Shown here: positions 11,842 to 62,026 of the stretch, one piece after another
Layout: every line of letters starts with the position of its first letter
Numbering within the stretch: position 1 is the first letter of the stretch
Source of the DNA: Dictyostelium discoideum
Taxonomy: Eukaryota
Reading direction: 5' to 3'
Length of the DNA stretch: 64,000 bases
Assembly (NCBI GenBank): GCA_000004695.1
Contig: CM000153.2
Location: 2,304,001 to 2,368,000 of the forward strand
The notes under the pieces: model-generated
Database searches by the model: none
The model's input: only the letters and a program-made list of their open reading frames with translations
What the model was told of the DNA's origin: nothing
Made by a program: the position numbers and the translations under genes

Positions 11842-14657
11842 TTAAAATGTACTATTTTTAATTTTTTCATAATCTAAATTTGCTTTTTCACGAAGTTCAT
11901 CAATATTCTTATCTTGTTCAGCATATTGGAGTACAAGATGACGACCATAAAAGTGAGAATTACCAAGTGCTTCCATTGCATTTTTAGCTTCTTCTTCTGT
12001 GAGGAATTCAACGAAACCAAAACCTCTATGACCTCCATTTGGTTTCTTTGGAATACGTACGGATTGAATTTCACCATAGGCAGTGAACAATTTTCTAATT
12101 TCTTTGATTGTTGATTCGAATGGAAGATTTTTAATAATGATTTTAGATGATGGTTTATTTGGTTGACCACCATTTGATTTAATAGATTGTTTACTGTTCT
12201 CTGGTAATTCTCTTCTTTTATTAATCTCTTGAACATTTGTTTCATTCTTGTCTGATAATTTCAATGAGATTTCATAACCATCAATTGAAGAACCATTCAA
12301 TTTCTTTATACATTCATATGCACCTTGTTTTGATGAAAATTCAATGAAACCGAAACCACATGGTAATCTTTCACTTGGATTCTTTGGATTAGCTTTAGTT
12401 GCAATATTTACATTAACATAATCCTTAAGTGATTTAAATTTACCAACGAGTGTTTCATTTGTAGTTTTCCAATTAAGATTTTTAATATAAACAAATTGAG
12501 TATTATTATCTGTACCTTTTTTAGTTGTTGTTGTTGTTGCTGCTGTTTTAGTTGTTGATTCAACTTCTTTTTTATCATTTGAACTATCTGATGATTTTTC
12601 AGATTTTTCAGATTTTTTAATTTCTTTTGGTGGAGCAGGTAATTTGAAAACACCTTCTGGTGCCCATTCAAGGTAAAGTGGGACATGGTGGAATTTTGAA
12701 TATGCTAAATTTTTAAAACCAACTTTAGCTTCATTTGGATGAATATATTCAATGAGTGCAATTGTACGAGCTGGTGAAAGTACAACACGAGAAAGTTCAC
12801 CAAATTTAGAGAATAATTCATGTAATTCATGTTCTTGAGTTTTAAATGGAATGTTTTTAACTAATAATACTGTGTTACTACGTTTACTACCTTTGTTACC
12901 AATATCTTGAATAATTACACCTTGATCCTCTAAAAACTTTTTAGTTTCATTAATTACATGAGTTTCCATTAATGTCATACGAACTGCTAAATCCATTTGA
13001 TTTGGATCTAATAATTGACCTTGAGTCATTTTATAACGTTCTGCTAATGAAGATACAATTGCATCACTTCTCATAAACAATGCATTCCAATTATGAGTTG
13101 AACCACTTGTTGTTTTTTGTTTTTGTTCTTTTTCAGCTTTAAATGATGATGATCCTCCTTCAGCACCATTATTATTATTATCTTTATTTTCAGAGAATTG
13201 TTTTGCTGGTGCGGCTTTACCTGGTAAAACATGAATTAATCTACCTTGGAAAACTTTACCATCCATGTCATTTAATGCTTGAACTGCATTCTCTGGAATT
13301 AAATATAAAATGAATGCAATACCTTTGGATTTCTTTGAATCATAATCAATTGGAATATGAATTTCAGAGATTTTACCAAATTTACTAAAAACTTTTTCTA
13401 AATCTTCTTCTTTTGTTGAATATGATAAATTTCTAACAAAAATTCTACCACTTTCACCAACATCTTCATCTTCTTTTGTATAATCATGTTCGAAATATTT
13501 AATTGGTTTAATTTTAGATTCATCATCATCACCATCATTATCATTATCTTTTTTATTTTTCTTTTTATCTTTTTTCTTTTCTTTTTTATTTTCTTTATTA
13601 TCATCAATTTTCATTTTATCTTTTTTATTTTCTTTATTATTAACATCCTCTTCCTCTGATTCTTCTTCATCTCTATAAACAATTGATTGATTCTTTTCAA
13701 TGATTTCATCATTATTTGATCTAAATTTACTTAACCAATCTAAATCTGAAACTGATGAATCATGTTTTTTCTTTTTTTCATTTATTATAGAATCTACATC
13801 ATCTTTTTTATTTTGTTTCTTTGGTGCTGTTGGCATATCTTCATATAAATCTTCTTCATCTGATGCGTCGGCATCTTCAAAAACTAATAAATCTTTATTT
13901 TTACCATGATCTAATTCAATCTTTTTTTTACCTGAAAATGGTAATTTACCATCCTCAACTTGATTATCATTTTCCTCTCCTTCTTCTCCTTCCTCTTCAC
14001 CTCTATTTATTTTACCAATTTCTTTATCATCATTTTCCCAAACTTTTCTATTTGCTTGAGGTGCAACTAAATTTAAAAATTCTTGATATTCAGGATCATT
14101 CTCTAATTCTGCATCTAATAAAGAATTTGTATGTGATTTCTTTTGTTTTTTATTTGATTGTTGTTCTAATTTATCTTGTTTTCTTTTTAATTCTTTTTTC
14201 TCTTTTTCTTTTTCCATTTCAGTTAATCTTTTATTTGATGATGAACCAATTGAATACTTTGACCATGGTCTATTTTCAGTTGTTTCACTTGCAACTGTTG
14301 CTGTTTCAACAACAATCTTTGATGTATCAATAAATGTACCATTCAATGAAAGTGCATTCTTTGCTGATTGTTCTGTTGAAAATCCAATAAATCCAAATAA
14401 TCTAGATTTACCATCCCTAGAAAAAAATAAAAATAAAAAAAATTAAAATTAATTATTAGTAAAACAATAATAATAATGATTATGGAAAAAAAAAAAAAAA
14501 AATATTCTGAAAATAAATAAAAAATAAAAAAATAAAATAATTACTTTTTGATAATTTTTGCATCTGTGACAGTACCAAATTTTTCGAAATGTTCTTTAAA
14601 ACGCTTATCTGTTAAATGTTTTGGTAATTGTTTTACACATATTCTTGTATTTGACAT
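11842..14657 (-). CDS. mrd1: Multiple-RRM nucleolar RNA-binding protein, Mrd1/RBM19 orthologue, two exons: complement(join(11842..14416,14545..14657))
   Basis: Five or six RRM-like segments and a C-terminus of the Mrd1/RBM19 type (KIIIKNLPFESTIKEIRKLFTAYGEIQSVRIPKK..GFGFVEFLTEEEAKNAMEAL), with a K/E/D-rich linker. The first RRM is split by an intron: exon 1 MSNTRICVKQLPKHLTDKRFKEHFEKFGTVTDAKIIK-K, donor AA|GTAATT at 14544, acceptor ctAG at 14418/14417, continuing KDGKSRLFGFIGFSTEQSAKNALSLNGTFIDTSK in frame. Confidence 0.8.
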
Positions 14658-14857
14658 AATATTATGGTATATATATTGTGATTATTTTTCTTTTTTTGGA
14701 ATAATGATTTAAAAATAAATTGAGAAAAAGAATGAAATAAAAAAAATAAAAAAAATAAAAAAAATTAAAAAAAAAAAAAACTTTCGTGTTTTTCGTTTTT
14801 TAGAAATAAAAAAAAAAAAAATTTAAATTAAATTAAAATATTTGTGGAAAAAACGTT

Positions 14858-14893
<36 letters not shown>

Positions 14894-15585
14894 TTCCAAC
14901 ATTCCAAAAATTTATTTAAAACTAAATCCAATTTATCATTTTTTAATTTATTAACAAATTGATTTTTTTTTTTTTTTTTTCTTTTTTTTATAATAAAATT
15001 AATCTTTGGCGCTAATAGTATGATGATGGTTAATTGAGAAGATTGCCCAAGTGATGATAACACAACTTTTATTTTTTTAATTATTGTAACCTAAGTAAAA
15101 AGGATCGTAACTAATTAAACTGGGTGTTCCAACTTTATTTATAGCAGAAGAAGGCAAGTCTTTAAACTCACAAATTTCAAGATAGTGTATAATTTTACTT
15201 TTTACTATTCTATGAAACCTTCAAGACAATCCAAATCCTTTGTTTGTTTCATAACAAAATCTCCGTTTTGGTATTTGAACCATTTATTTGATTTTAATAA
15301 CCTATAATCTTTTTTATCTACATATTTTTCTTAAACACGTTCAACTGATTTTGGTGGATTTTTAAATGTGATTTATTAGTTTTTGATCGACTTGGAAGTG
15401 AAAGACAATTACATTATTCCAATTTTTATTGCTTCTTCTTTTACTTTTTTTAAATCATTTAATGTTACAGAATGTTCATTATCTTTGAAATTCATTAAAC
15501 AAACTTCTTCCGTCATTAATTAAAAAGAGTATTCAATAATACTATAATTTAGTTACTTATAAGGGGGTTGTGGTGTGTTGTAATA

Positions 15586-15956: not shown

Positions 15957-16799
15957 ATGGCAAATTTAAATCAATCATCATCATCAATACAGGTTCCGAA
16001 ATTATCGAAATATATGATATCGTTTGGATATTTTTTAATGGGTATTATAGTTACAGCAACAATGTTTTTATCAAATAATAACAACTTTTCAATTGTGTCA
16101 TATACTTTATTATCAGAAATAATATTTGGTGTGATTATATCATTTTTGCATATAGGATTTTCAATATTCGCATTTCCTGGTAATAGTAGTACTTTAGATA
16201 AAATAAATAGATCTTTAATTGGACTTTCAATTGGTAATTTTGTTTTTTATTTCCTTTTAATTTTATATGGTGCTCCATTTTTAAAGTAATTATATAATTA
16301 TTATTACTACTATTAATATTTATTATTTTTATTAATTTTAATTATTTTTAAATCTAGGTCTATTCATACAACATTCTTTTTTGGATTTTTATTATCTTCA
16401 ATGTGTTGTTTACCACCATCAATTTTATTAGGATTAAATCCTCAAAATTGGAAAGATTTATTTTTTACACCAAAGTAAGGAGAAAAAAAAAAAAAAAAAA
16501 AAAAAAAAAATAATAATGATTATGATAATAAGTTTAAGATATATGATATTAATTAAAAACTTATAATTTCATCTCAATCATAAAGCCATAATAATATAAT
16601 TGATACATGTACCACAATTTTAGTTGTTTTTAGTATTTTAGGTGCTTGGATTGGTGCTTTCCCAATTCCTTTAGATTGGGATAGACCTTGGCAACAATGG
16701 CCAATTAGTTGTGTTTTTGGTTCAATAGTTGGTCACATATTTGGTTTATTCATTTGTTCAGTTTATTCTTTAGTTCACAAAGAAAAGAAGAGCATGTAA
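15957..16799 (+). CDS. pigF: GPI-anchor biosynthesis protein PIG-F (GPI ethanolamine-phosphate transferase subunit F), three exons: join(15957..16285,16358..16474,16586..16799), about 219 aa
   Basis: The last exon contains the PIG-F/GPI11 family signature GAWIGAFPIPLDWDRPWQQWPI. The protein is multi-pass hydrophobic. Phase-2 donors AA|GTAATT (16286) and AA|GTAAGG (16475); acceptors AG 16356/7 and 16584/5 keep one continuous frame (MANLNQSS..GAPFLK|SIHTTFFFGF..FTPK|NHNNIIDTCTTILVVFSILGAW..). The ORF-track M at 15903 is a TTG; the true ATG is 15957. Confidence 0.7.
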
Positions 16800-17646
16800 T
16801 AATTAAAAAATTAAAAAAATAAAATAAAAGAATAAAATAAAAGAATAAAAAAAAAAAAAAAAAAAAAAAGAATAAAAAATATGATACAATAATAAAATAA
16901 TTATATAATTTCCTTTTATTTTTTTTTTTTTTGATCAAACCAAATAATATTTTTTATAGATCTCCATAAAATATTTAAATAAATAAATAAATTAATATTT
17001 ATTAATAATTATAATTAATTTTATTATTAATTTATTTTTTAAAATTTTAATAAAAAGGATAATATAATCATGGTTTTTAACAATCAGAATATATTCGAAA
17101 GAAATGATCAATTTTAAAATCAAACACACATAGTCCAAAAAAAGAAAAATAAAAAAATAATAAATACACTAAATTTAAACAAATTGAAATTTCAACCCGT
17201 TTCGCTTTTTATTTAATTTTTTAATTTCGGCCGAATTGCCGGATGCGGTTCTTTTATTTATTTATTTATTTTTTTTTTTTTTTTTTTTTTTTTCACAAAC
17301 CGAATATTTAATTAAATTTTTATTTTTTTTTTATTTTTTTTTTTTTGAACATTCGTTTTTTTTTTTTTTTTTTTATTTTTTTTTATTTTTTTTTATTTTT
17401 TTTTTTTTTGAAAAGGTTGTTGTATTTATTTAATTACATAAATATTTATAAATAATCTCGACTTTTTTAAAAAAAACATTATCACAAAGGTATGTGTTCA
17501 AAAATTTATTATTAGACCAACCCCCTTTAAAATAAGCATATCCACATTTAAAAAAAAAAACCCCTTTTTAAACTTCAACACGACATATCTGGTTTTTTAC
17601 ACTTTTTTTTTTTTTATATTTTTTTTTTTTTATATTTTTTTTTTTT

Positions 17647-17684
<38 letters not shown>

Positions 17685-18214
17685 ATTTTTTAATTGTATT
17701 ATTTTTTTAATTTTAATTTTATTATTTTTTTTTTTTTTAATTTGTTTTTTATTTTTTTTTTTTTTTAATTTAATTTAACCTTAAACCAAATTCCAGTTTT
17801 TTTATTTTGTTTTTTAAAATTTTATTTTTTTTAATTCCCAAGATACAGAAAAACAAAAGTATTTATTTATATCTTATTTTTTGCTTGGACCATAACGTAA
17901 ATATTGTATAAGCAATTCAATTTCAATTTCAATTTCATTCAAATAAAAATAATAAAAATAAAATAAAATAAAAATAAAAGAAATAATGACACCACACCCA
18001 CTTTTTTTTAATAAAATATAATTTTTTTTTTTTTTTTTATATAAAAATATATTTTTAACTATTCGAATTTTTTTTATATTACAATTACTATAATTTTATT
18101 TTATTTTATTTTATTTTATTTATTTTTTAAAATTTTATTTTAATTTTTTTTCTTTTTTTTTTTTTTATTTTTATTTTAATTTCTTTTGTATTCTTTTAAA
18201 ACCACATACTAACC

Positions 18215-18247
<33 letters not shown>

Positions 18248-18295
18248 TTTTATAGATTTTTAAATATTATATAATTATATAAATAAAATTTAAAA

Positions 18296-19334
18296 ATGGG
18301 TGATAGAATTAAAATTTTAACAGGTAATGCACATCGTGAATTAGCATCAGAAATTTCAGATGATTTAAATTTAGCATTGGGTAAAGCACATGTTGGTAAA
18401 TTTTCAAATGGTGAAACCTCAGTAATGATTAGTGAATCAATTCGTGATATGGATGTTTACATTATTCAACCAACTTGTAATCCAAATGTAAATGATAACC
18501 TTATGGAATTATTAATTATGGCAGATGCAATCAGAAGAGCTTCAGCTCATCGTATCACTGCCGTAATTCCATGTTTTGGTTATGCTAGACAAGATAAAAA
18601 AGATAAATCAAGAGCACCAATCACTGGTAAATTAGTTGCAAATTTAATTGAAACTGCTGGTATTGATAGAGTTATTACAATGGATTTACAGTAAGTCTTT
18701 ATTATTATTATTATTATTTTCGTAACATTAAAATATTTTAAATATTAATTTTATTATTATCATTATTATTTATAGTGCAAGTCAAATTCAAGGTTTTTTT
18801 AATATTCCAGTAGATAATTTATATGCTGAACCACAAATTATTAAATATATTAGAAAGTATATTCCAGGTGAAAAAGTTATTGTATCACCAGATGCTGGTG
18901 GTGTAAAACGTGCCAAATCAATCTCTGATAAATTGGATGCAGATTTAGCAATTATTCATAAGGAACGTAAGAAGGCAAATGAAGTCTCTGGTATGATTTT
19001 AGTTGGTGATGTAAAGGATAAGGTTGCATTGATCGTTGATGATATGGCCGATACTTGTGGTACTTTAGTATCCGCTTGTGAAATGTTAATTAGTAAAGGT
19101 GCTACTAAAGTTTACGCATTAGTAACCCATGGTGTTTTAAGTGGTGATGCTATTCAAAAATTAAATGAATCCTCTCTCACAGAATTAGTCATTACAAATA
19201 CAATTCCACATGCTGAAAAAGCCGCTAAATGTCCAAAGATTAAAACTATAAATATCGCTCATACTCTTTCTGAAGCAATTAGAAGAACTCATCATGGTGA
19301 ATCAATTTCTTCATTATTCTCTGATACAAAATAA
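18296..19334 (+). CDS. prs: Ribose-phosphate pyrophosphokinase (PRPP synthetase), two exons: join(18296..18690,18776..19334)
   Basis: Near-textbook PRPS sequence: [48 protein letters not shown]|ASQIQGFF (split by an 85-bp intron: donor CA|GTAAGT 18691, acceptor tatAG 18774/5), [28 protein letters not shown]. Confidence 0.9.
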
Positions 19335-19960
19335 TCAAAAAAAAAAAAAAAAAAAAAAACACAAACAAATAACAATTTATAATAATATTTTTTTTTTTTC
19401 AAATTGTTTATTTTTTTACTTTTTTTTACTTTTTTTTTTTTTTTTTTTTTTATACATGAAAGTGGATAAAAAAAAAAAATTAAATTAAAAATAACAATTT
19501 TATTTTCTAAAACATACATACATATAAAACAAAACAAAAAATAAACAAAATAAAAACACAAAATACTCTTCACTAAAAAAAAAAAAAAAAAAAAAAAAAA
19601 ATAATATTTGGCCAAACATAAATCTGGAAAATTACGAAAAAAAAAAAAAAAATAATCCCTTCAATTTTAAGTTTTATAAAATAATAAAAAAAAAAACAAA
19701 AGAAAAAAAGAATATGAATTTTCTGATTGGTTTCATACTTCAACATACACAAAAATTAAGTTTGGCCGATTCACATGGTTTTTTTTTTATTTGAAATAAT
19801 TTTTTATTTGGATATTTTTTTGATTGACTTTAAAAATAAGTTTTTTTTTTTTATTTTTTTTTTTTTTTTGATAACTGACCAGTACATAAATATCTGAAGA
19901 AATTTTGGATTTTTTTTCTTATTTTTTTTTATTTTTTTTTGTTGTTATCAAATTCAAAAA

Positions 19961-21047
19961 ATGAATATCAAATATATTATTTTAGGTTTATTATTATTTG
20001 TTGTTGCTTCAGCCACTGCAAAATATACCTGTGAATGTAATTTCTCACATGGTGAAACTCGTTTAATTGCTGTAAAAGAGTAAATTTAGTTAAAAAATTT
20101 TAAAAATAATCATTTTTGGGTGTCAATTATTTAAATTCTAATTTTTCTTAATATGTGTATTAGTAAATCTCATTGTATGGAAAGATGTAATTCCATTATT
20201 CAAGAAGTTTATACTATTCCATGTGATTTACAAACTTGCACTTGTAAATGTACAAATGGAACTATTTTCGGTTGTCAACCAACTCCAACAACAACATCAA
20301 CTACCTCAGCTTCAACAACAACTGGTAAAGCCTCATCATCTGGTCCATCAACAACCGGTAGAGCTTCATCATCAGGTCCATCAACAACTGGTAGAGCTTC
20401 ATCATCAGGTCCATCAACAACTGGTAGAGCTTCATCATCTGGTCCATCATCAACTGGTAAAGCTTCATCTTCAGGTCCATCATCAACTGGTAAAGCTTCA
20501 TCATCTGGTCCATCATCAACTGGTAAAACTTCATCTTCAAGTAAATATTAATTTTCCTTTGTTCAAAAATTCTAGTAGATTAATTTTATTCCTAAATTAA
20601 TATATAATTTTTATTTTTATTATAGGCACCCAAACTTCAGGTTCCCAAACCTCAGGTTCACAAACATCAGGTTCACAAACATCGGGTTCACAATCAGGAC
20701 AACAAACAGGTTCGCAATCAGGTTCACAATCAGGACAACAAACAAGTTCACAATCAGGTTCACAATCAGGACAACAATCAGGTTCACAATCAGGTACCCA
20801 AACCTCAGGTCAAACCTCAGGTCAAACTGGTGCCCAAACTGGTCAATCAACTGCTTCAAGTGGTAGCAGTGGAAGTAGTGGAAGCAGTGGAAGTAGTGGA
20901 AGTAGCGGTGGTAGTTCTGGAAGTGGTGGCAGTTCTGGAAGTGGTGGTGGTAGCGGTTCAGGTAGTGGCATGGCAGTTAAAGTTGATAAATGCTATGGTA
21001 CTTACTGTCCATGTAACAAAGAACTTTTAAGTGTTAGAGTATTATAA
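19961..21047 (+). CDS. Secreted Cys-capped Ser/Thr/Gly-rich tandem-repeat (mucin-like) protein, three exons: join(19961..20079,20164..20540,20626..21047)
   Basis: Exon 1: signal peptide [20 protein letters not shown] plus [19 protein letters not shown], donor GA|GTAAAT. Exon 2: Cys-rich [32 protein letters not shown], then seven tandem 11-aa repeats ([12 protein letters not shown], 33-bp DNA period 20330..20520), donor A|GTAAAT 20541. Exon 3 (no ATG, so absent from the ORF track): (TSGSQ)n/(SGSQSGQQ)n and (SGS)n, ending [22 protein letters not shown]. Both intron phases check out. Confidence 0.65.
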
Positions 21048-41747: not shown

Positions 41748-42807
41748 TAAATAAATAAATAAATTAATAAATAAAAATAAATAAAAAATAAATAAATAAA
41801 AATAAAAATAAAAATAAAAAAAAAAAAAAGTAGTGTTGCCACTTTCTCATTTTGAGATTTTGCCAAAGTTAAAAGTGATGAAGGTGTAGGTTATAAAATT
41901 TTTTTCAATTTTTTTTTTTTAGTGTTTTATTTTTTTATTTTAATTAAATTTTTCTTTTTTTTTTTTTTTTTTTTTTTTTCTTTTTTTGGATCGAGCACAA
42001 AATCATAGATATATCTAAAATGATTTATTTTAATTAGAAAGTATAATAATAAAAAAAAAAAATAATAATAAAAAAAAAAATATAAAATAAAACACTGATT
42101 TTATAATAAAAAAAAGATTGAATTAGCAGATTACACTTTTTGAATTGTTTTATTTTTATTTTTATTTTTTTTTTTATTTTTTTTTTTTTTTATTTTTTTT
42201 TTTTTTAAAAAAAATTTTTTTCCAAAAGATATTTTTTTTTTTTTTCTAATTTTTTTTTTTTTTAATTTTAATATTATTATTAAGACATAAAAGGATATTA
42301 AAAAAAAATAAAATAAAATAAAATAATCACCTACAATACACACACTCACTCGCACACTCACAATTTAACAACTCACAAACAGCACACCACACAAATAAAG
42401 ACAACTGAGATTATCATGTTGTTTTATTTTTAAAAAAAAAAAAAAAAAAAAAAAATAAAATAAAAAAAAAATAATAAATAAATAAAATTAAAAAATATAT
42501 GTATATTTAATTTGTAGTATAATTTTTATTTTTTTTTTAAATTAATTTTTATTATTTTTTTTTTTTTAAAACACCATTTATTGTAATAATAATACTTAAT
42601 AATAATTAATAATAATTATAATAATATTAATAATAATATAGTATAATTTAACTCCCTTATAAACTTTCAATATTTCATAAATAGTAATATCATAAATAAT
42701 AATAAATATTTTAACTTCATTTAAAGTTATAATTTATTATTTTTCATATATATATATATTTTTTTTTATTCTAAACTACACCTTATAAATTAATTTTTTT
42801 TTTTTTG

Positions 42808-42848
<41 letters not shown>

Positions 42849-42925
42849 ATTCCACACACACAAAAAAAGGTTTATTTTATTTTATTTTTATTAAATAAAA
42901 CTAAATAAAAAAAAAAAAAAAAAAA

Positions 42926-45635
<2,710 letters not shown>

Positions 45636-46413: not shown

Positions 46414-46435
46414 ATGGACACTTTTGGAAATAAGG

Positions 46436-46474
<39 letters not shown>

Positions 46475-46735
46475 GCAACAAAGATATTGATAATACAATT
46501 GAATCAAAATTAACATTAACACCCTCTCCTTCAACTCCAGAAAAAATAGTATCAACAGTAACAACTGCAGTAGCCAAACCAAAAAAAGAATTAAAGAATT
46601 TAGTATTATACAAGCTAATTGATATAAATAGTGCAAAATGTTATTTTAAATATCAAAATATTAGAAAAGATATTGAATTATTTATAAATAAAGATGATGA
46701 GCCATCATTTAGAATTCTACTTGAAAATAATGCCG

Positions 46736-46766
<31 letters not shown>

Positions 46767-47711
46767 TAATAAGTTTATTATTGAACAAAGTGCAACCACT
46801 CTATTGAAATCATATTTAAAGTTAGAAAAACCAATAAAAGGAAATAGTTATGTTTATATCAATGATAAGAAAATTGATGATTACTCTTTTGATTTTCTTA
46901 TATCTGCTACCAGTACCACCACTGCCACAACAACAACAACAAACACCACACCACAATCTAGTAACAAAACAATACCATCTACACCAGTGTCAGTATCAAC
47001 CTCAACCGAAAAAGCTAATCAACTCAATTCTACACCAGGTATTGATCAAACTCCATATAGAGAAATTAATGATCATAAATTAATAAAAAAAGTTATAATT
47101 AAAGAAAATACTCAAAAAGAAGTAGAAGTAGAAGAAGAGTATCAATTCATTAAGAAATCATCACCATCATTGAAACAACATATTCAAATTAAAGAAGAAG
47201 AAGAAGAAGAAGAAGAAAAAGAATTAATTATAGAGAATGCAAAAATAAAACCATCAGGTGTTGGTAGATTCTTTCATTTCGGATGTGAAAGATATTTATC
47301 ATTTTCAAGTAGACAAACTTATAAAGAGAATGATCCAATTAAATCAATTCAAAGTCCAATTTCATCTGTTCAACAGAAACTAATTGATGATGGTTTCATT
47401 TGGGAGGATAAAGTTTTAAAGTATTTACAAGATGAAAATGATATTAAAAATCCTAAATATAGAATATTTAAACCTGAAAATGGTCAAGCAGATTTATCAA
47501 TCTCTGAAACTATTAGAATTTTAAAAGATGAAAAAGTAGATTCAACCCCATTCTATATGATTCAATCAACACTTGAACCACCAAAATCATTTAGAAGAAA
47601 TTTACCTGACTCAATTAAATTTTCAATTTCAAAGCCTGATTTCTTATTAATTTCAAAAAAGAGTACTTATGACGATGATGGTGATGGTAATAAATCAAAT
47701 ACTACAACAGC

Positions 47712-47746
<35 letters not shown>

Positions 47747-50700
47747 CGGCAACAATTAGAGAAATTGAAATTCAAGATGCAAAATCAACAACAGTTATTG
47801 CATTCCATCAAAAGATTCAATTAGCATTCTATTCATTGTTATTGAATGACATTATTAAAGAATTTGGTATTAAAGATTTAGTAGTGTCAGATAGAGCTGG
47901 TATTTATTTAAAAGGTAATTTTAATGTTGAATATTTTTCATTAAAGGATTCAATTAAAATACTTGAAAGTTTTTTATTTGGTGATTCTATTAAAAAGAGA
48001 TCATATCTTTTAGATATCCTTTCAACACCAAAAGAAAAATCTCCTTGGATTCTTAGTGAAAGATGTGATGGTTGTGAATTTATAAACTATTGTACAAATC
48101 AATATGAAAATGAAAAAACTTTAAATTCTTCTGTAAATATAAAATCTTCATCATTATTAAATTTAATTAAACAAGAAAATGAAAAAGAAAAAGAAAAAGA
48201 AAAAGAAAAAGAAAAAGAAAAAGAAAAAGAAAAAGAAAAAGAAAAAGAAAAAGAAAAAGAAAAAGAAAATGAAAATGAAAAAACAAATCAATTAGAATTT
48301 TTAATGAAAATCGATAAAGAATCAATTAAAAATTTAGCACAAAGAGTTGATTTTATTAAATCTTTACCAATGATTGAAGCATCACTAACTGATAAAGTTG
48401 TACCAACTGGTTTATTCGATATTAGATTATCTTCATATGAAGATATTCAAGTTTATTTAGAAATTATACATAATCCAATTAATCAATCAATTTACCAATG
48501 GGGTGTTTTAGTTGTTGATAATACTATCACACCACCATCACCATCATCAAATAAATTTGCAAAAGGAAATGATTTCATTGAATTGGTTATGGGTTTATCA
48601 GTGATTTTCAACCAATATCATAAATCGAAATTATCATTACAATGTTATATATTTGATTCATTCCAAAAATCATTATTCTTTAAACAATGTTTTAAATTAT
48701 TAAAAGATATTAATAATAATAATAATAACATTAATAATAATGAAATTGAATTACATAAAGAATCAATTCTTTTAGTATTAAGAACTTTATTACATAGTAA
48801 TGAATGGATTAATTTAAATATTGGTCATTTTCCACAATGTAATGTACCTTTAAATTGGACATTATCAGATAGACAAGATGAATATTCTTTCTTGGTTATT
48901 AAAGATTTAATTAAAACTTCATTTGCTATAAATGTTAAACCATTTTATACATTTAATAATATTGTAAAGAAATTATTATCACCTTCATCAAATGCTAATG
49001 GTGATGAAGATGATGATGGTGATGAAATATTTAAATTAATAATTAATAATGAAGATTGTTCAAATATTATTGAAAATAAATTACATAAACAATTAGAATT
49101 AATTAATTATTTAAAATTAGTTGTATTTAAAGGTGAAGATTTAAAAGAAGTAAAGAAAGCAAACCAATTCTTAATTAGAGACAAATCAATTTATAATGAT
49201 AATAAATTATTAGCAAAATTATTTTATTGTTATCAAAATGAATGTATTTCATCATATAGAAAATTAAAACAAATTAGATCAAATCCATTAGAAATTAATT
49301 TATTGGAAGGAACATTCTACAAATTAAAACTATTATCAATTGAAGCAAATGGTGAAAAGAAATTTAGATTAACATTTTCAACCGATATAAACATTCAAAA
49401 TTATCAAAGATTTGAACATATCATTGATAAATCATTCTCAAGTTTTGCTTTAATTCAATTATCAAACTATAAACATATATGGTCTTTAAATGAAATTTTA
49501 TCAACTTCTTCAGATTTAAAAAATCAATTCATTGAATCAATTCCATCAATTCATTCACATTATATCATTAACAAATCAATTGATTTAATTTCAGTTTCAT
49601 TAGTTTTTGATGTTTCTTCAAATGTTAAATTTTTAAACAATATGTATGTATAAAATAAAAAATAAAATAAAATAATAATAATAATAATAAATCAATACTA
49701 ATATTAATAAATATTTATTTATTTATTTAAAAGTGGTGAAGAATTTTTATTTTTTGAAAAATATGATATTGGTTACTTTTCAATGCATAGAAGTTTATTA
49801 AAATCGTATGATGAAATGAATAAATCATCAATATTTTTAGATATATTAAATGACCCAAAGAAATGGTGTACCGAGAATATTGATAATGATTTTAAGAGAT
49901 TAACTGATCAAGTGATTGAATCATTTAAAGATATTAGTGGTATTAATCCAAATACTAAATTAGTGATGACAACTTCTCAACAATTAATATTCGATTCAAT
50001 CATTAAAAAGAGAATGCAATTAGTAAGAGGTCCACCAGGTACTGGTAAAACTCATTTCTTAGCATTGGTAGTATTAATATTTATGGAATCATTCAAGAGA
50101 AAAGAAAAACCATTTAGAATTGCTATAACTTCATTTACACATAATGCAATCGATAATTTGCTATTAAGAATTTCAGCATTAAAAAAAGAATATTCAATTT
50201 CTGTTGGTCAAGATATTAATTTCCCATTATTTAAAAAACAATCATCCAAATTAACTGATGAATTCAAAGATAATGATATTAAATTATTCGATAAAAAAGA
50301 TTTAACAAATCGTAATCATCTTTGTGTTGGTGCTACAAGTTGGTCATTATCAACATTGGATTATAATGATTTCGATTTATTAATCATTGATGAAGCTTCT
50401 CAATTAAGTAGTTTTATTGGCTCTATACCATTCCAAAGATTAAATAAAGAAACTGGTAAAATTATAATTTGTGGTGATAATAAACAATTAGGTCCAGTTT
50501 TAAATGACTCATATCCAAATAGAAAAGAATTAAATTGTAATCAAAATCAAAATCAAAATCAAAATAATAATAATGATAATCCAAAATTACATAAATCAGT
50601 TTTCTCTTGTATTAAATCTCATCTAATTGCAAATAATATTAAAAATCCATATTTATCACTTTATGAAAACTTTAGAATGAATAATCAACTTTGTAAATTC

Positions 50701-51423
50701 TCTCAAAATCTTTATGGTAAACTTTATCAATGCTTTAAAGAGAATCAAGAATCAATAACACCTTTATCATTTGATAAAGATGATTTAAATAATCAATTGA
50801 TTGAATCAATTTTCAATAATGATTTATCATGTCATACAATCCTATTAGATGATTCACAATTTGGTGATAAAATATTAGAAGCCAACATTGTTAAACAAAT
50901 TTATAAATTCTTAAGAAAAGAATATTCAAAAAGATTAATTAATAATAATAATAATGAAGAAATAAATGATGAACAAATTAAAGAAGATAAATTTTGGAGA
51001 AAAGATTTAATACTTGGTGTAATTACACCACTTCATATTCAAAGAAATACAATTATTCCAATGATAAATCGTGTACAAATTAATGAATTAAATCTTGAAG
51101 CAACTGTAAAACCAATTGTAAATACAGTTGAAGTTACACAAGGTAAAGAATTTGAAAATGTAATTCTATGTTATAATGGTTTTGATGATCTTAATCGTAT
51201 CTCTGAATTTAGTTTTGACCTTAATCGTTTAAATGTTGGTTTCACTCGTTCAAAGAAAAGATTCATCTTAATAGTTTCCTCAAAATTATTCTTCCCTGAT
51301 GAATCAATCTTTGATAACAAAAGAATGTCTTTAGCTTATAATCATTTAATTAAATATATTGAATATTCAAAAATTCATCAATTTTATTCCTCACAAATTA
51401 AAAATGATAATAATATTATTAAA

Positions 51424-51481
<58 letters not shown>

Positions 51482-51543
51482 TAAATGACAATAATTTAAT
51501 CGATAAATTTAATAACAGTTTGGTGTTCGAGGATAAAAAATGA
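46414..51543 (+). CDS. Large nuclease-helicase fusion (DNA2-like): Cas4/RecB-type PD-(D/E)xK nuclease with 4Fe-4S cysteine motif plus Upf1-like SF1B helicase; proposed join(46414..49643,49734..51543), about 1660 aa
   Basis: Nuclease part: first Cys HFGCERYLSF; hhDhh motif SKPDFLLISK; E..K IEIQDAKST; QxxxY HQKIQLAFYSLLL; C-x2-C-x5-C ERCDGCEFINYC. Helicase part: Walker A LVRGPPGTGKTHFL, motif II LLIIDEASQL, motif III IICGDNKQLGPV, motifs V/VI VEVTQGKEFENVIL and LNRLNVGFTRSKKRFILIV. The two ORFs are joined by a 90-bp AT-rich intron (donor AT|GTATGT 49644, acceptor aaAG 49732/3, phase 2). A (GAAAAA)n run codes (KE)n. Confidence 0.6.
48181..48266 (+). repeat. (GAAAAA)n hexanucleotide repeat inside the nuclease-helicase CDS, encoding an (EK)n tract
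   Basis: gaaaaagaaaaagaaaaa.. seen directly from ~48181 to ~48266. Confidence 0.9.
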
Positions 51544-58419: not shown

Positions 58420-61400
58420 TTATTTTACTAATGGTAAACGATCATAAGATAAAATTGAAGATAACCATCTTTCAGCTTCTTCTTTGGTGATTTGTTTTCT
58501 TGATGCATAAGATTCGATTTGTTCTTTAGTGATTTTACCAACAGAGAAATATTTAGCATGTTCATGAGAGAAATAAACACCACAAACTGCAGCACCAGGT
58601 AACATTGCCATATGATCGGTTAATTCGATAGAGGTATTTTCATTTACATTCATTAATGACCAAATGGTTTTCATTTCAGTATGATCTGGTTGAGCTGGAT
58701 AACCTGGAGCTGGACGAATACCTTTATATTTAATTTTGAATAAATCTTCATTTGATAATGCTTGATCCTTTTCATAGGCCCAATGTTCTCTTCTAACATC
58801 TTCGTGAACAGCTTCTGCCAATGCCTCTGCTAAACGATCAGCCAATGCTTTAGCCATGATACTTGAGTAATCGTCATTCTCTTTTTTATATTTTTCAACC
58901 ATATCTTCTAAACCAAAACCAGAACTAACAGCGAATAAACCAATGTAATCCTTTACACCCGATGAAACTGGTGCGATATAATCACCGATGGCAATGTATG
59001 GTTCATCAGTTTCCTTTTCATTTTGTTGACGAAGACCAAAGAGTGTTGCAATTGGTTTGGAACGAGTTTCATCATCATTATGATCGTAGATTATAATATC
59101 CTCATCGATACTATTAGCAGGGTAGAAACCAATTACACCACGAGCATTTAAAAGTTTCTTATCGACAATTTCCTTCAACATGGTTTGAGCATCATCAAAG
59201 AGTTTCTTTGCTTCGGCACCAACGGTTTCATCATTGAAAATACGTGGATAACCACGATTTGGATATTTACCACGTAATTGCCAAGTTACAAAGAATGGAT
59301 TCCAATCGATTTTAGTGACTAATTTCTCCAAGGAATACTCTTTGAAAACTTGAGTACCAAGGAATGTTGGTTTAACAGGTTGAATGGTTTTCCAATTAAC
59401 TTTAACACAATGTTGACGTGCTTTCTCTAAAGAAGTATATTTTCTATCCTTTAGTGAAGCATAATGTTTCTCACGAAGTTCTGCGTATTGCTGTGAAACA
59501 TCCTCTGCGAAAACTTCTTTATTATTTGGATCTAACAATGATTGAACTACAGTTACACTACGTGATGCATCTAAAACATGAACGGTTGGTTGAGAATAGT
59601 GTGGTGAAATCTTAACTGCTGTGTGAATTTGTGAGGTAGTGGCACCACCAATCATTAATGGGATTTTGAATTTAAGTCTTTCCAATTCACTTGCTACATA
59701 AATCATCTCGTCCAATGATGGAGTGATTAAACCTGATAAACCTACAACATCGGCTTTGTTGGCAATGATGGCCTCTACAATCTTTTCACATGGTGTCATA
59801 ACACCAATATCAATGACTTTGTAATTGTTACAACCCAATACAACACCAACGATATTCTTACCGATATCATGTACATCACCTTTAACAGTTGCCAAAACAA
59901 CGACACCGGCATTATCTGGTTCATCTTCTGCTGCTTCATCGTTACCTTTCTCTAAACGTTTTAATCTTTTCTCTTCCTCCATGAATGGAATTAAATGAGC
60001 TACAGCTTTTTTCATAACACGAGCACTCTTGATAACTTGTGGAAGAAACATTTTACCAGCACCAAATAAATCACCAACAACATTCATACCACCCATTAAT
60101 GGGCCTTCAATGACAGATAATGATGATGGTAATGTGTTACGTGCCTCTTCGGTATCTTCAATGATATAAGTGGTGATACCTTTAACCAAAGCATGAGCGA
60201 TTCTTTCAGACACTGGTTTATTTCTCCATTCTTCTACTTCAACATTTGCTTTCTCTGATTTATTATTGGCTTGAGCGTATTCTAATAGTTTTTCAGTTGC
60301 ATCATTGGTACGATTTAAAATTGCATCCTCTACTAATTTCAAAAGATCCTTTGGAATATCATCATAGATTGGTAATGCACCAGCATTAACGATACCCATA
60401 TCCATACCGGCGGCAATTGCATAGTAAAGGAAAGCACTGTGCATAGCTTCACGCAATGGTTCGTTACCACGGAATGAGAAGGAAAGATTAGAAACACCAC
60501 CACTTACACGAGTTAATGGCATCAATGCTTTGATCTCTCTAGTGGCCTCAATGAATTCTACACCATAGTTATTATGTTCTTCTAAACCTGTTGCAATTGT
60601 TAAGATATTTGGATCGAAAATGATATCTTGTGGATAGAAACCAACTTGCTCTGTTAGGATCTTGTATGAACGATAACAAATTCTAACTTTCTCTTCTTTG
60701 CTTGTAGCTTGACCATTTTCATCGAATGCCATAACAACAACGGATGCACCATATTGTTTAACGATTTTAGCTTGTTTAATGAACAATTCTTCACCAACCT
60801 TCAAAGAGATTGAATTGACAATACACTTGCCTTGAACACATTTTAAACCTGCCTCTACAACATCGAAATTACTAGAATCCAACATGATTGGTACCTTTGA
60901 AATCTCTGGTTCTGAGCCAATGAAGAATAAAAACTTTTGAATGGCTGCAACTGCATCAATCATACCTTCATCCATATTGATATCAATGATTTGTGCACCA
61001 GCTTCAACTTGTTGACGAGCAACTGATAATGCCTCTTCGTATTTATTGGCTTTGATTAAATTTGCGAAACGTCTTGAACCAGATACATTACAACGTTCAC
61101 CAACATTTACAAAATTTAATTCCTTTGTGAATACCAATGGCTCCAAACCAGAGAGTGTAGTATTTGGAACAAGTGTTGGAATGGCACGTGGTGCGATACC
61201 CTCAATGGCATTGCAGAATGCACGAATGTGATCTGGAGATGTACCACAACAACCACCTACAATATTTAATAAACCAGACTCGGCAAACTCCTTAATTTGC
61301 TCTGCCATCATCTCTGGTGTTTCATCGTAACCACCAAATGTATTTGGCAAACCTGCATTTGGATAACATGAAACGTAGCATTCTGAACACTTTGAAATAT

Positions 61401-62026
61401 TTTGAAGGAATGGTCTCATCTCTTGAGCACCCAATGCACAATTCAAACCGAATACCATAAGATTTGCACTTGCAACACTTGTATAGAATGCCTCACCTGT
61501 TTGACCACTCAATGTTCTACCACTCTTATCTACGATAGTACCTGAAACGAATACTGGTAATCTTGGTGAATATGTCTTGAAGAATTCCTCAATTGCGAAT
61601 AATGCTGCTTTACAATTGAGTGAATCGAAAACTGTCTCCACCAAAATCACATCAATACCACCCTCAACCAATGCTTCAACCTGTTCGAGATAACCACTTA
61701 CCAATTCATCGAATAATACATTTCTTGCTTCTGGTCTTTCGACTGATGGTGAAATCGAAGCTGTCTTATTGGTTGGACCAACTGCACCACAAACAAATCT
61801 TGGTCTACTTGGATCCTTCTTTGTATACTCTTCACATGCACTCTTGGCTAATCTTGCTGATTCAATATTAATTCTTTTAACTAAATGTTCCATCTTATAA
61901 TCTGCTTGTGAAAATATATTACCATTAAATGTATTGGTTTCAATAAAATCTGCACCTGCTTCAAGATATTTCTAATGAATCAATTATTATAAAAATATAT
62001 TTATATTAATTTATTATTATTTATTA

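Follow-up and report, generated by a model that had tools for sequence, protein, structure and literature searches.

A dictyostelid candidate for the Bad family of nuclease-helicases, with a putative RAMA-like domain at its N-terminus

Introduction

Bad is an enzyme found rarely in bacteria and archaea, first described by Wilkinson et al. (2020, PMC7430649). The characterised member, from Geobacillus stearothermophilus (WP_053413574; 1,245 amino acids (aa)), acts on DNA and contains an iron-staple nuclease, a conserved central domain and a superfamily 1B (SF1B) helicase; it is so far the one member for which an Fe-S cluster, single-stranded-DNA endonuclease activity and 5'-3' translocase/helicase activity are known. 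Its authors predict a short coiled coil in the central domain, which they call "completely unknown" and which, they state, is absent from all eukaryotic DNA2 proteins (PMC7430649). Here we analyse a window of 64,000 nucleotides (nt) from Dictyostelium discoideum (assembly GCA_000004695.1, contig CM000153.2, positions 2,304,001 to 2,368,000 of the forward strand), and we describe a gene at 46414..51543 of this window which, by our estimate, has about three chances in four of encoding a dictyostelid member of the Bad nuclease-helicase family.

Three further groups of proteins bear on this assignment. In DNA2 only a barrel and a stalk join the nuclease to the motor, and roughly 380-420 residues separate the aspartate of nuclease motif III from the Walker A lysine. 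Cas4 is a protein of ~200 aa that works with Cas1 and Cas2. Proteins of COG2251 combine an RNase H-like domain (PF13482) with the Cas4-like DUF83 and, often, tandem AAA domains (Majorek et al. 2014). Among the papers that we found, none reports a eukaryotic Bad member, a fold for the central domain, or a fusion of Bad to a RAMA domain.

Results

A dictyostelid relative of Bad

The product that we assign to this gene has, from its N-terminus, a RAMA-like domain, a 4Fe-4S nuclease, a helical segment that carries an (EK)n tract, a domain of DEDD-like fold, a region of helices and beta strands that is probably a stalk and barrel, and an SF1B motor; the only low-complexity inserts between or within these domains are the (EK)n, poly-Thr and poly-Asn tracts. 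The features, in window coordinates, are these:

46414..51543, + strand: whole gene, two exons and one predicted intron; product of 1,679 aa
46414..49643, + strand: exon 1
49644..49733, + strand: predicted intron of 90 nt, GTATGT donor, AAAG acceptor, phase 2, 8% G+C
49734..51543, + strand: exon 2, with the stop codon at 51541..51543
46582..46908, + strand: putative RAMA-like module for binding double-stranded DNA (dsDNA), aa 57-165, interrupted by a poly-Asn loop
47239..48129, + strand: RecB/Cas4-type 4Fe-4S iron-staple PD-(D/E)xK nuclease, aa 276-572
47695..47754, + strand: poly-Thr insert, aa 428-447, lying in the loop that connects nuclease motif II to motif III
48173..48282, + strand: (EK)n tract, a 6-bp tandem repeat of 18.3 copies with 96% matches
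48433..49140, + strand: central domain, first part, aa ~674-909, predicted DEDD/DnaQ-like 3'-5' exonuclease (RNase H-like) fold
49141..49908, + strand: central domain, second part, aa ~910-1135, with the intron inside it; modelled as long helices and beta strands
49921..51378, + strand: SF1B (Upf1/Dna2-like) helicase core, aa ~1140-1625

With aa 270-1076 as the query, an exhaustive HMMER search recovered 114 proteins, among them eight clusters of dictyostelid orthologues (expectation value (E) 7e-233 to 2e-74) and about 45 prokaryote-type proteins, mostly of ~1,130-1,440 aa, that have the same layout; the matches to prokaryotic members reach into the central region (e.g., query residues 182-491 and 183-496). 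One protein provides a direct bridge to the published family: ACJ33552.1 (P0251 in our set) is named among the Bad proteins in Supplementary Figure 1 of Wilkinson et al. 2020 (PMC7430649). BLASTP aligns the window protein to ACJ33552.1 in two collinear blocks, residues 278-589 with 7-279 (1e-15) and residues 930-1622 with 597-1225 (2e-48), the second block resuming within the second part of the central domain; it is because of this collinearity with a protein named as Bad that we assign the amoeba protein to the family. ACJ33552.1 also shares a cluster with a 1,245-aa protein of Anoxybacillus flavithermus (P0186), in which our alignment places the motif III Asp at 150 and the Walker A Lys at 815; in Geobacillus Bad the mutant of nuclease motif III is D150A and that of Walker A is K815A (Wilkinson et al. 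2020, PMC7430649). These two residues are separated by 727 positions in the window protein, and by 644-701 in the aligned prokaryotic Bad proteins.

The relatives fall into two types. A long group (1,426-2,054 aa) contains proteins of Dictyostelium purpureum (XP_003283757), Polysphondylium violaceum, Tieghemostelium lacteum, Cavenderia fasciculata, Synstelium polycarpum and Heterostelium album, together with P0129; the closest database protein is that of D. purpureum, with 62% identity. P0129 shares its contig with genes for SH3, fibrillarin, BORCS6 and C2H2 zinc-finger proteins and is therefore eukaryotic: at least one eukaryote beyond the dictyostelids has the gene. In the compact, prokaryote-type clade the nuclease stands at the extreme N-terminus and is followed by ~550 unannotated residues and then by AAA_11/AAA_12; the prokaryotic members that we looked up are named 'bifunctional RecB family nuclease/DEAD/DEAH box helicase' by NCBI. 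Two further long, eukaryote-like members, P0193 (2,054 aa; loci L006 and L007) and P0228 (1,426 aa; L005), lie alone on contigs that barely exceed the gene, and neither has the RAMA module; P0193 recurs on near-identical contigs from several samples, which look like assembled transcripts of eukaryotes. A different family architecture is seen in P0134 (1,669 aa, from a Logan assembly): an additional and seemingly intact DEDDh exonuclease of the RNase_T type (PF00929, residues 15-150, E = 4.8e-11) is placed before its nuclease.

Set beside Geobacillus Bad, the amoeba protein has the same three parts in collinear order, from the iron-staple nuclease through the conserved central domain to the SF1B helicase, and the same catalytic residues, which, as read from the sequence, are intact in its nuclease and in its helicase. 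It differs in being eukaryotic and intron-containing, in its length (1,679 aa versus 1,245 aa), in its N-terminal RAMA-like domain and its poly-Asn, poly-Thr and (EK)n inserts, and in that no methyltransferase gene neighbours it. The original prediction, made from the DNA alone, had offered two readings of this gene, a highly diverged DNA2 orthologue or a distinct nuclease-helicase of the same superfamily; the Bad-family relatives and the central domain favour the second.

The nuclease and helicase domains

The key residues of the nuclease are C291; G327-x2-W330-E331; D409 (motif II); D455-x-K457 (motif III); Q469-x3-Y473; and C551-x2-C554-x5-C560, with the cysteines contained in FGCERYL (aa 289) and CDGCEFINYC (aa 551). 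A full-length alignment of 54 family sequences shows no variation at G327, W330, E331, D409, D455, K457, Q469, Y473, C551, C554 or C560; C291 is kept in at least 90% of them. This set reads as a complete iron-staple RecB/Cas4 signature, and its invariance across the alignment argues that the motifs are not there by chance. The iron-sulfur RecB/Cas4-type nuclease with a QxxxY motif that had originally been proposed is thus upheld by invariant residues, by the profile matches of relatives and by a Cas4-like fold; the "atypically spaced" E..K motif (EIQDAK) proposed with it was a misreading of the canonical, invariant D455-x-K457 (here D455-A-K457) inside IQDAKS.

Profile searches with the window protein by itself tell a different story: neither Pfam nor NCBIfam yielded a significant nuclease match, whether the N-terminal 1,130 aa were submitted whole or as three trimmed fragments. 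This miss is a failure of sensitivity, because 21 of the 24 relatives that were scanned singly match PDDEXK_1 (best 1.7e-7), 19 of the 24 match Cas_Cas4 (best 3.3e-10), and the modelled fold fits Cas4 best. The absence of a significant PD-(D/E)xK match, which the original prediction had named as grounds for giving it up, therefore holds for the window protein alone, but the nuclease is restored by its relatives and its fold. A search of the nuclease-profile HMM (hidden Markov model) against PDB sequences gave no meaningful match; in a word-indexed homologue search the trimmed N-terminus found nothing, and nuclease profile A2 found only three fragments. Looked up as exact sequences, the spliced protein and the two separate ORFs were all absent from the collection searched.

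When aa 270-1076 were modelled with AlphaFold2 from the family alignment, the model reached a predicted local distance difference test (pLDDT) score of 85.4 and a predicted template modelling score (pTM) of 0.86. The sole significant Foldseek match of this model in the PDB is Cas4 (8d3l_I, 5e-4); the nuclease fold matches Cas4, DNA2 and AddB, with Cas4 above DNA2 in both fold searches. Cas4 (7MI4, 8D3L, 4IC1) is thus the best structural match for the nuclease, with the four-Cys cluster, D..DxK and QxxxY in common; unlike Cas4, the amoeba domain is embedded in a 1,679-aa helicase fusion and has no CRISPR context.

The helicase is more readily recognised. Its core contains GPPGTGKT (aa 1176), DEASQ (aa 1296), GDNKQLGPV (aa 1324), TQGKEFENV (aa 1545) and NVGFTRSKK (aa 1577), with Walker A K1182, Walker B D1296-E1297 and NVGFTR(1582); Walker A, Walker B and motifs III, V and VI are all preserved, with almost no variation across the 54-sequence alignment. 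Pfam finds AAA_11 (7e-15) and AAA_12 (2.5e-12) over aa 1158-1592. A complete SF1B core had been predicted, and both it and every motif string quoted for the protein are present in the 1,679-aa product. A search with the helicase as bait returned only helicases of ~30% identity, mostly on short metagenomic contigs, and phmmer found no similarity between the N-terminal extensions of those helicases and the middle region of the query.

When the helicase is compared with PDB sequences, mouse DNA2 is the closest (1.5e-14), ahead of Nam7/Upf1 (~1e-12), and it might be argued that this gene is a highly diverged eukaryotic DNA2 orthologue, serving to process Okazaki fragments and double-strand-break ends. 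We consider this highly unlikely, and we reject it. The profile search for PF08696 (Dna2), which had been proposed as a check, produced no match in the whole protein at E <= 1, none in fragments at E <= 10, and none in any of the 24 relatives. The match to Bad (2e-48 and 1e-15) goes far beyond that to DNA2, so that Bad proteins and not DNA2 are the nearest relatives by sequence; Cas4 outscores DNA2 in both fold searches; and the Asp-Lys distance of 727 residues compares with 644-701 in Bad and ~380-420 in DNA2. Furthermore, the amoeba protein has the Bad-specific central domain: ~550 residues that are extra with respect to eukaryotic DNA2 (PDB 5EAN/5EAX), including the DEDD-like domain, are interposed between its nuclease and its motor.

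The central region between nuclease and helicase

This region had been dismissed as a linker of about 500 aa. In fact the ~550 residues align across the family with nearly invariant columns and are confidently folded in the AlphaFold2 model; they form conserved domains, and they are the region that defines Bad. The first part is predicted to adopt a DEDD/DnaQ-like (RNase H-like) fold. At the positions on beta1 that correspond to the D-x-E pair of exonuclease I (ExoI), Thr occupies the first in 33 of 41 prokaryotic members and Gln the second in 36 of 41; the window protein has E683 and I685. Because this acidic pair is replaced, the DEDD-like domain is probably catalytically dead. The second part probably provides the stalk and barrel that stand ahead of the motor in Upf1/Dna2-like SF1B helicases. 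Sequence searches of the central domain were negative: scanning it member by member against Pfam gave nothing, PF13482 included, and a central-domain profile HMM had no meaningful match among PDB sequences.

The modelled fold would link Bad to the TM0106/COG2251 nucleases (TIGR03491): the N-terminal half of the amoeba protein is modelled with the same two folds as these, in the same order. Relatives match TIGR03491 at 1.3e-10 to 1e-3, all of them under the curated cutoff of 97 bits, and the match of one prokaryotic member, P0137, extends beyond the nuclease into the next region; the window protein itself has no TIGR03491 match. Unlike TM0106/COG2251 proteins, the amoeba protein has an exonuclease-like domain that has lost the ExoI acidic pair and does not match PF13482.

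A predicted intron joins two open reading frames

The + strand of the window has two open reading frames (ORFs) at this locus, 46414..49653 (1,079 aa) and 49783..51543 (586 aa), separated by a very AT-rich stretch. It could be supposed that these are two genes, one for a nuclease and one for a helicase, bearing in mind the stop codon at 49651..49653 and the ATG at 49783. However, excision of 49644..49733 fuses both ORFs in frame to yield a 5,040-nt coding sequence; the ends of this intron are the canonical GT...AG, and its G+C content is only 8%. Residues from 16 codons before the second ORF's ATG, i.e., between the acceptor at 49734 and 49783, are conserved in dictyostelid orthologues, which align without gaps across the splice junction (query FLNNIGEEFLFFEKYDIGYFSMH, D. 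purpureum FNDKIGNEFILFEVFDLGFFAMH), and in the prokaryotic homologues the nuclease and helicase halves all lie within a single unbroken ORF. Two separate genes are thus extremely improbable. Since the predicted intron keeps the frame and the flanking residues are conserved on both sides, 46414..51543 is, on the evidence of these sequences, one spliced gene. The 90-bp intron had been anticipated at exactly this position; the length given then for the product, about 1660 aa, was close to the computed 1,679.

A putative RAMA-like N-terminal domain

Another feature of the protein, one that the original prediction had not mentioned, is the module at aa 57-165, which is RAMA-like in fold and is specific to the eukaryotic clade. 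The RAMA model of Pfam (PF18755) returned E = 0.16 at best and DUF4357 returned 0.02, each in one of the nine members scanned, and neither match is significant; similarity of sequence to the RAMA domains of MPND (7YDT) and CcrM (6PBD) is negligible. RAMA sequences are poorly conserved, according to the study of MPND RAMA. The domain contacts duplex DNA via the backbone, and that of MPND also binds histones and nucleosomes; in the MPND structural study, recognition of N6-methyladenine (6mA) was not reproduced and binding was independent both of sequence and of 6mA. The usual fusion partners of prokaryotic RAMA are restriction-fold nucleases and N6-adenine methylases; for eukaryotes, the RAMA-defining paper lists neither a nuclease-helicase among the architectures nor Amoebozoa among the lineages. 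Known eukaryotic RAMA proteins are chromatin and deubiquitinase proteins, whereas the amoeba protein is a nuclease-helicase.

Low-complexity tracts

The (EK)n tract, which the original prediction had singled out, is a genuine 6-bp tandem repeat; it is modelled as an extension of the long helix after the nuclease (model residues 309-338), and it is missing from D. purpureum and other orthologues. The poly-Thr insert, which Tandem Repeats Finder (TRF) reports as (ACA)n at 47704..47755, is likewise missing from orthologues, and its pLDDT is below 50 (model residues 153-173). We regard both tracts as species-specific expansions of codon repeats that are typical of this genome and unlikely to affect function; a role for (EK)n as a functional element was considered, and rejected, as the closest orthologue does without it. 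Since the D. purpureum orthologue has neither poly-Thr nor (EK)18, it appears that the folded enzymatic domains of this protein tolerate codon-repeat expansions in their surface loops and helices.

Genomic neighbourhoods

Three prokaryotic loci were examined, and no cas genes were seen near the homologues at any of them. At the first (L001, contig AMWB02055823.1, GCA_000315315.2), the P0133 gene (8213..12037) ends 11 nt ahead of a helicase gene (12049..15093) that encodes a 1,014-aa YprA/MrfA-like protein (DEAD, Helicase_C, WHD_HRQ1, MZB); this may be a two-helicase operon, although neither of the other two loci showed the pairing. At a second (L003, a Methanosarcinaceae contig), the archaeal P0130 is near a HEPN/MNT-type pair and a BrxC/PglY-like DUF6079 gene (12446..13228 and 16639..20245), in a region that resembles a defence island. 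The remaining homologue, P0137, sits among housekeeping genes. Because these three contexts differ, we do not claim a conserved operon system.

The window around the amoeba gene is ~22% G+C, rich in poly-Gln and poly-Asn tracts, and includes genes for FNIP repeats, a TgrO1-like Ig protein and a Sin1/RIP3-like CRIM+RBD protein. The last of these is the upstream neighbour (42926..45334, + strand; CRIM 2.5e-8, Raf-like RBD 2e-6), which has exceptionally long poly-Gln tracts; GC skew is -0.49 in 42001..44000. A complete cobalamin-dependent methionine synthase (58420..61893, - strand; five Pfam domains, Met_synt_B12 1.7e-117) occupies the window's most G+C-rich stretch (0.32-0.37, versus ~0.22 typically).

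Discussion

Several points weigh against placing the amoeba protein in the Bad family with the domains and activities that we propose. Its identity to bacterial Bad is only 23-28%, and its sequence has no significant nuclease profile match of its own. The intron is called from frame and flanking conservation; the DEDD-like assignment comes from predicted structure, with no sequence-level support, and the verdict that this domain is dead comes from alignment columns and not from structural superposition. For the RAMA-like module, sequence-level support goes no further than a Pfam E value of 0.16, and the specificity of RAMA for 6mA is disputed. Finally, the activities of eukaryotic members are extrapolated from Geobacillus Bad, and the heterogeneous neighbourhoods of the prokaryotic genes give no firm functional clue. 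Against these points stand the collinear alignment with ACJ33552.1, the family-wide invariance of the catalytic residues and the presence of the central domain, and we retain the assignment to Bad at the probability given above.

By analogy with Geobacillus Bad, the enzyme is probably a 5'-to-3' single-stranded-DNA motor coupled to an endonuclease. It would load on a free 5' single-stranded end, or on a flap, at a junction of single-stranded and double-stranded DNA, and its ATP-driven motor would travel 5'-to-3'; the iron-sulfur nuclease, held together by its 4Fe-4S cluster, would cut the tracked single strand endonucleolytically, thereby masking the unwinding, while the other strand would be looped. 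The exonuclease-like domain, probably dead, might be a scaffold, or might bind and handle the displaced strand. The RAMA domain could tether the enzyme to duplex DNA or chromatin, possibly in a manner sensitive to adenine methylation.

It may be asked whether the substrate is DNA at all, inasmuch as the helicase also resembles Nam7/Upf1, Sen1 and IGHMBP2, and RNA is the substrate of some of these. It is nonetheless very unlikely that the protein is a Upf1-like helicase directed at RNA, with a role in RNA cleavage, or a catalytically inert scaffold: the characterised Bad member acts on DNA, nucleases of the Cas4, AddB and DNA2 types are DNases, and all catalytic residues of both the nuclease and the helicase are intact.

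As to the role of a DNA-acting Bad enzyme in the cell, we consider DNA-end processing in the surveillance of foreign or damaged DNA to be more likely than a DNA2-like role in replication. One candidate, which has roughly one chance in three, is a housekeeping factor for repair or recombination that acts on 5' flaps, stalled forks and breaks in chromatin, with RAMA as a non-specific anchor to DNA and nucleosomes. The activities of Bad closely mirror those of DNA2 (PMC7430649); the non-specific binding of MPND RAMA to dsDNA, and its binding to histones and nucleosomes, would suit such an anchor. The gene is conserved across dictyostelid genera, P0137 has a housekeeping context, and the helicase next to P0133 could be placed in the repair branch of the YprA/MrfA family. 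On the other hand, most eukaryotes lack the Bad family and few bacteria have it, an odd distribution for a core repair factor.

A second candidate, tentative and rather unlikely on present evidence, is a restriction-like defence. RAMA would read adenine methylation, and the targets that the Bad module unwinds and shreds would be foreign DNA, such as Dam-methylated DNA of bacterial prey, plasmid DNA or viral DNA. The Geobacillus bad gene always neighbours a Type III-like N6-adenine methyltransferase, its authors suggest a new class of restriction enzyme, and the distribution among prokaryotes is sporadic (PMC7430649). Consistent with this idea are the restriction nucleases and N6-adenine methylases to which prokaryotic RAMA is usually fused, the HEPN/MNT and BrxC/PglY-like genes near archaeal P0130, and the YprA-type helicase that follows P0133. 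It is harder to reconcile with the housekeeping surroundings of P0137, with the failure to reproduce 6mA recognition by RAMA in the structural study, and with the retention of the gene in all sampled Dictyostelia, which is more like housekeeping than like a fast-evolving defence gene; in the literature we found nothing on 6mA in Dictyostelium. In its most specific form the idea is more doubtful still: dictyostelids and at least one other eukaryote might carry a restriction-like innate defence enzyme in which RAMA senses adenine methylation and directs Bad-type shredding of foreign DNA, a counterpart of the methyltransferase-linked Geobacillus Bad.

The class to which the enzyme belongs was already known, through one characterised bacterial member; new with respect to the papers that we searched are the eukaryotic members, the fold proposed for the central domain, and the putative fusion to RAMA. 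These proteins are labelled "DNA2/NAM7 helicase-like" and could be taken for DNA2, an annotation trap that the present assignment corrects. The degenerate DEDD-exonuclease fold predicted for the central domain would tie Bad to the TM0106/COG2251 nucleases. The eukaryotic RAMA fusion parallels the methyltransferase neighbour of Geobacillus bad, and both may point to a modification-linked function. Since eukaryotic Bad members are conserved across Dictyostelia, what Bad does can now be tested in a haploid model organism with tractable genetics.

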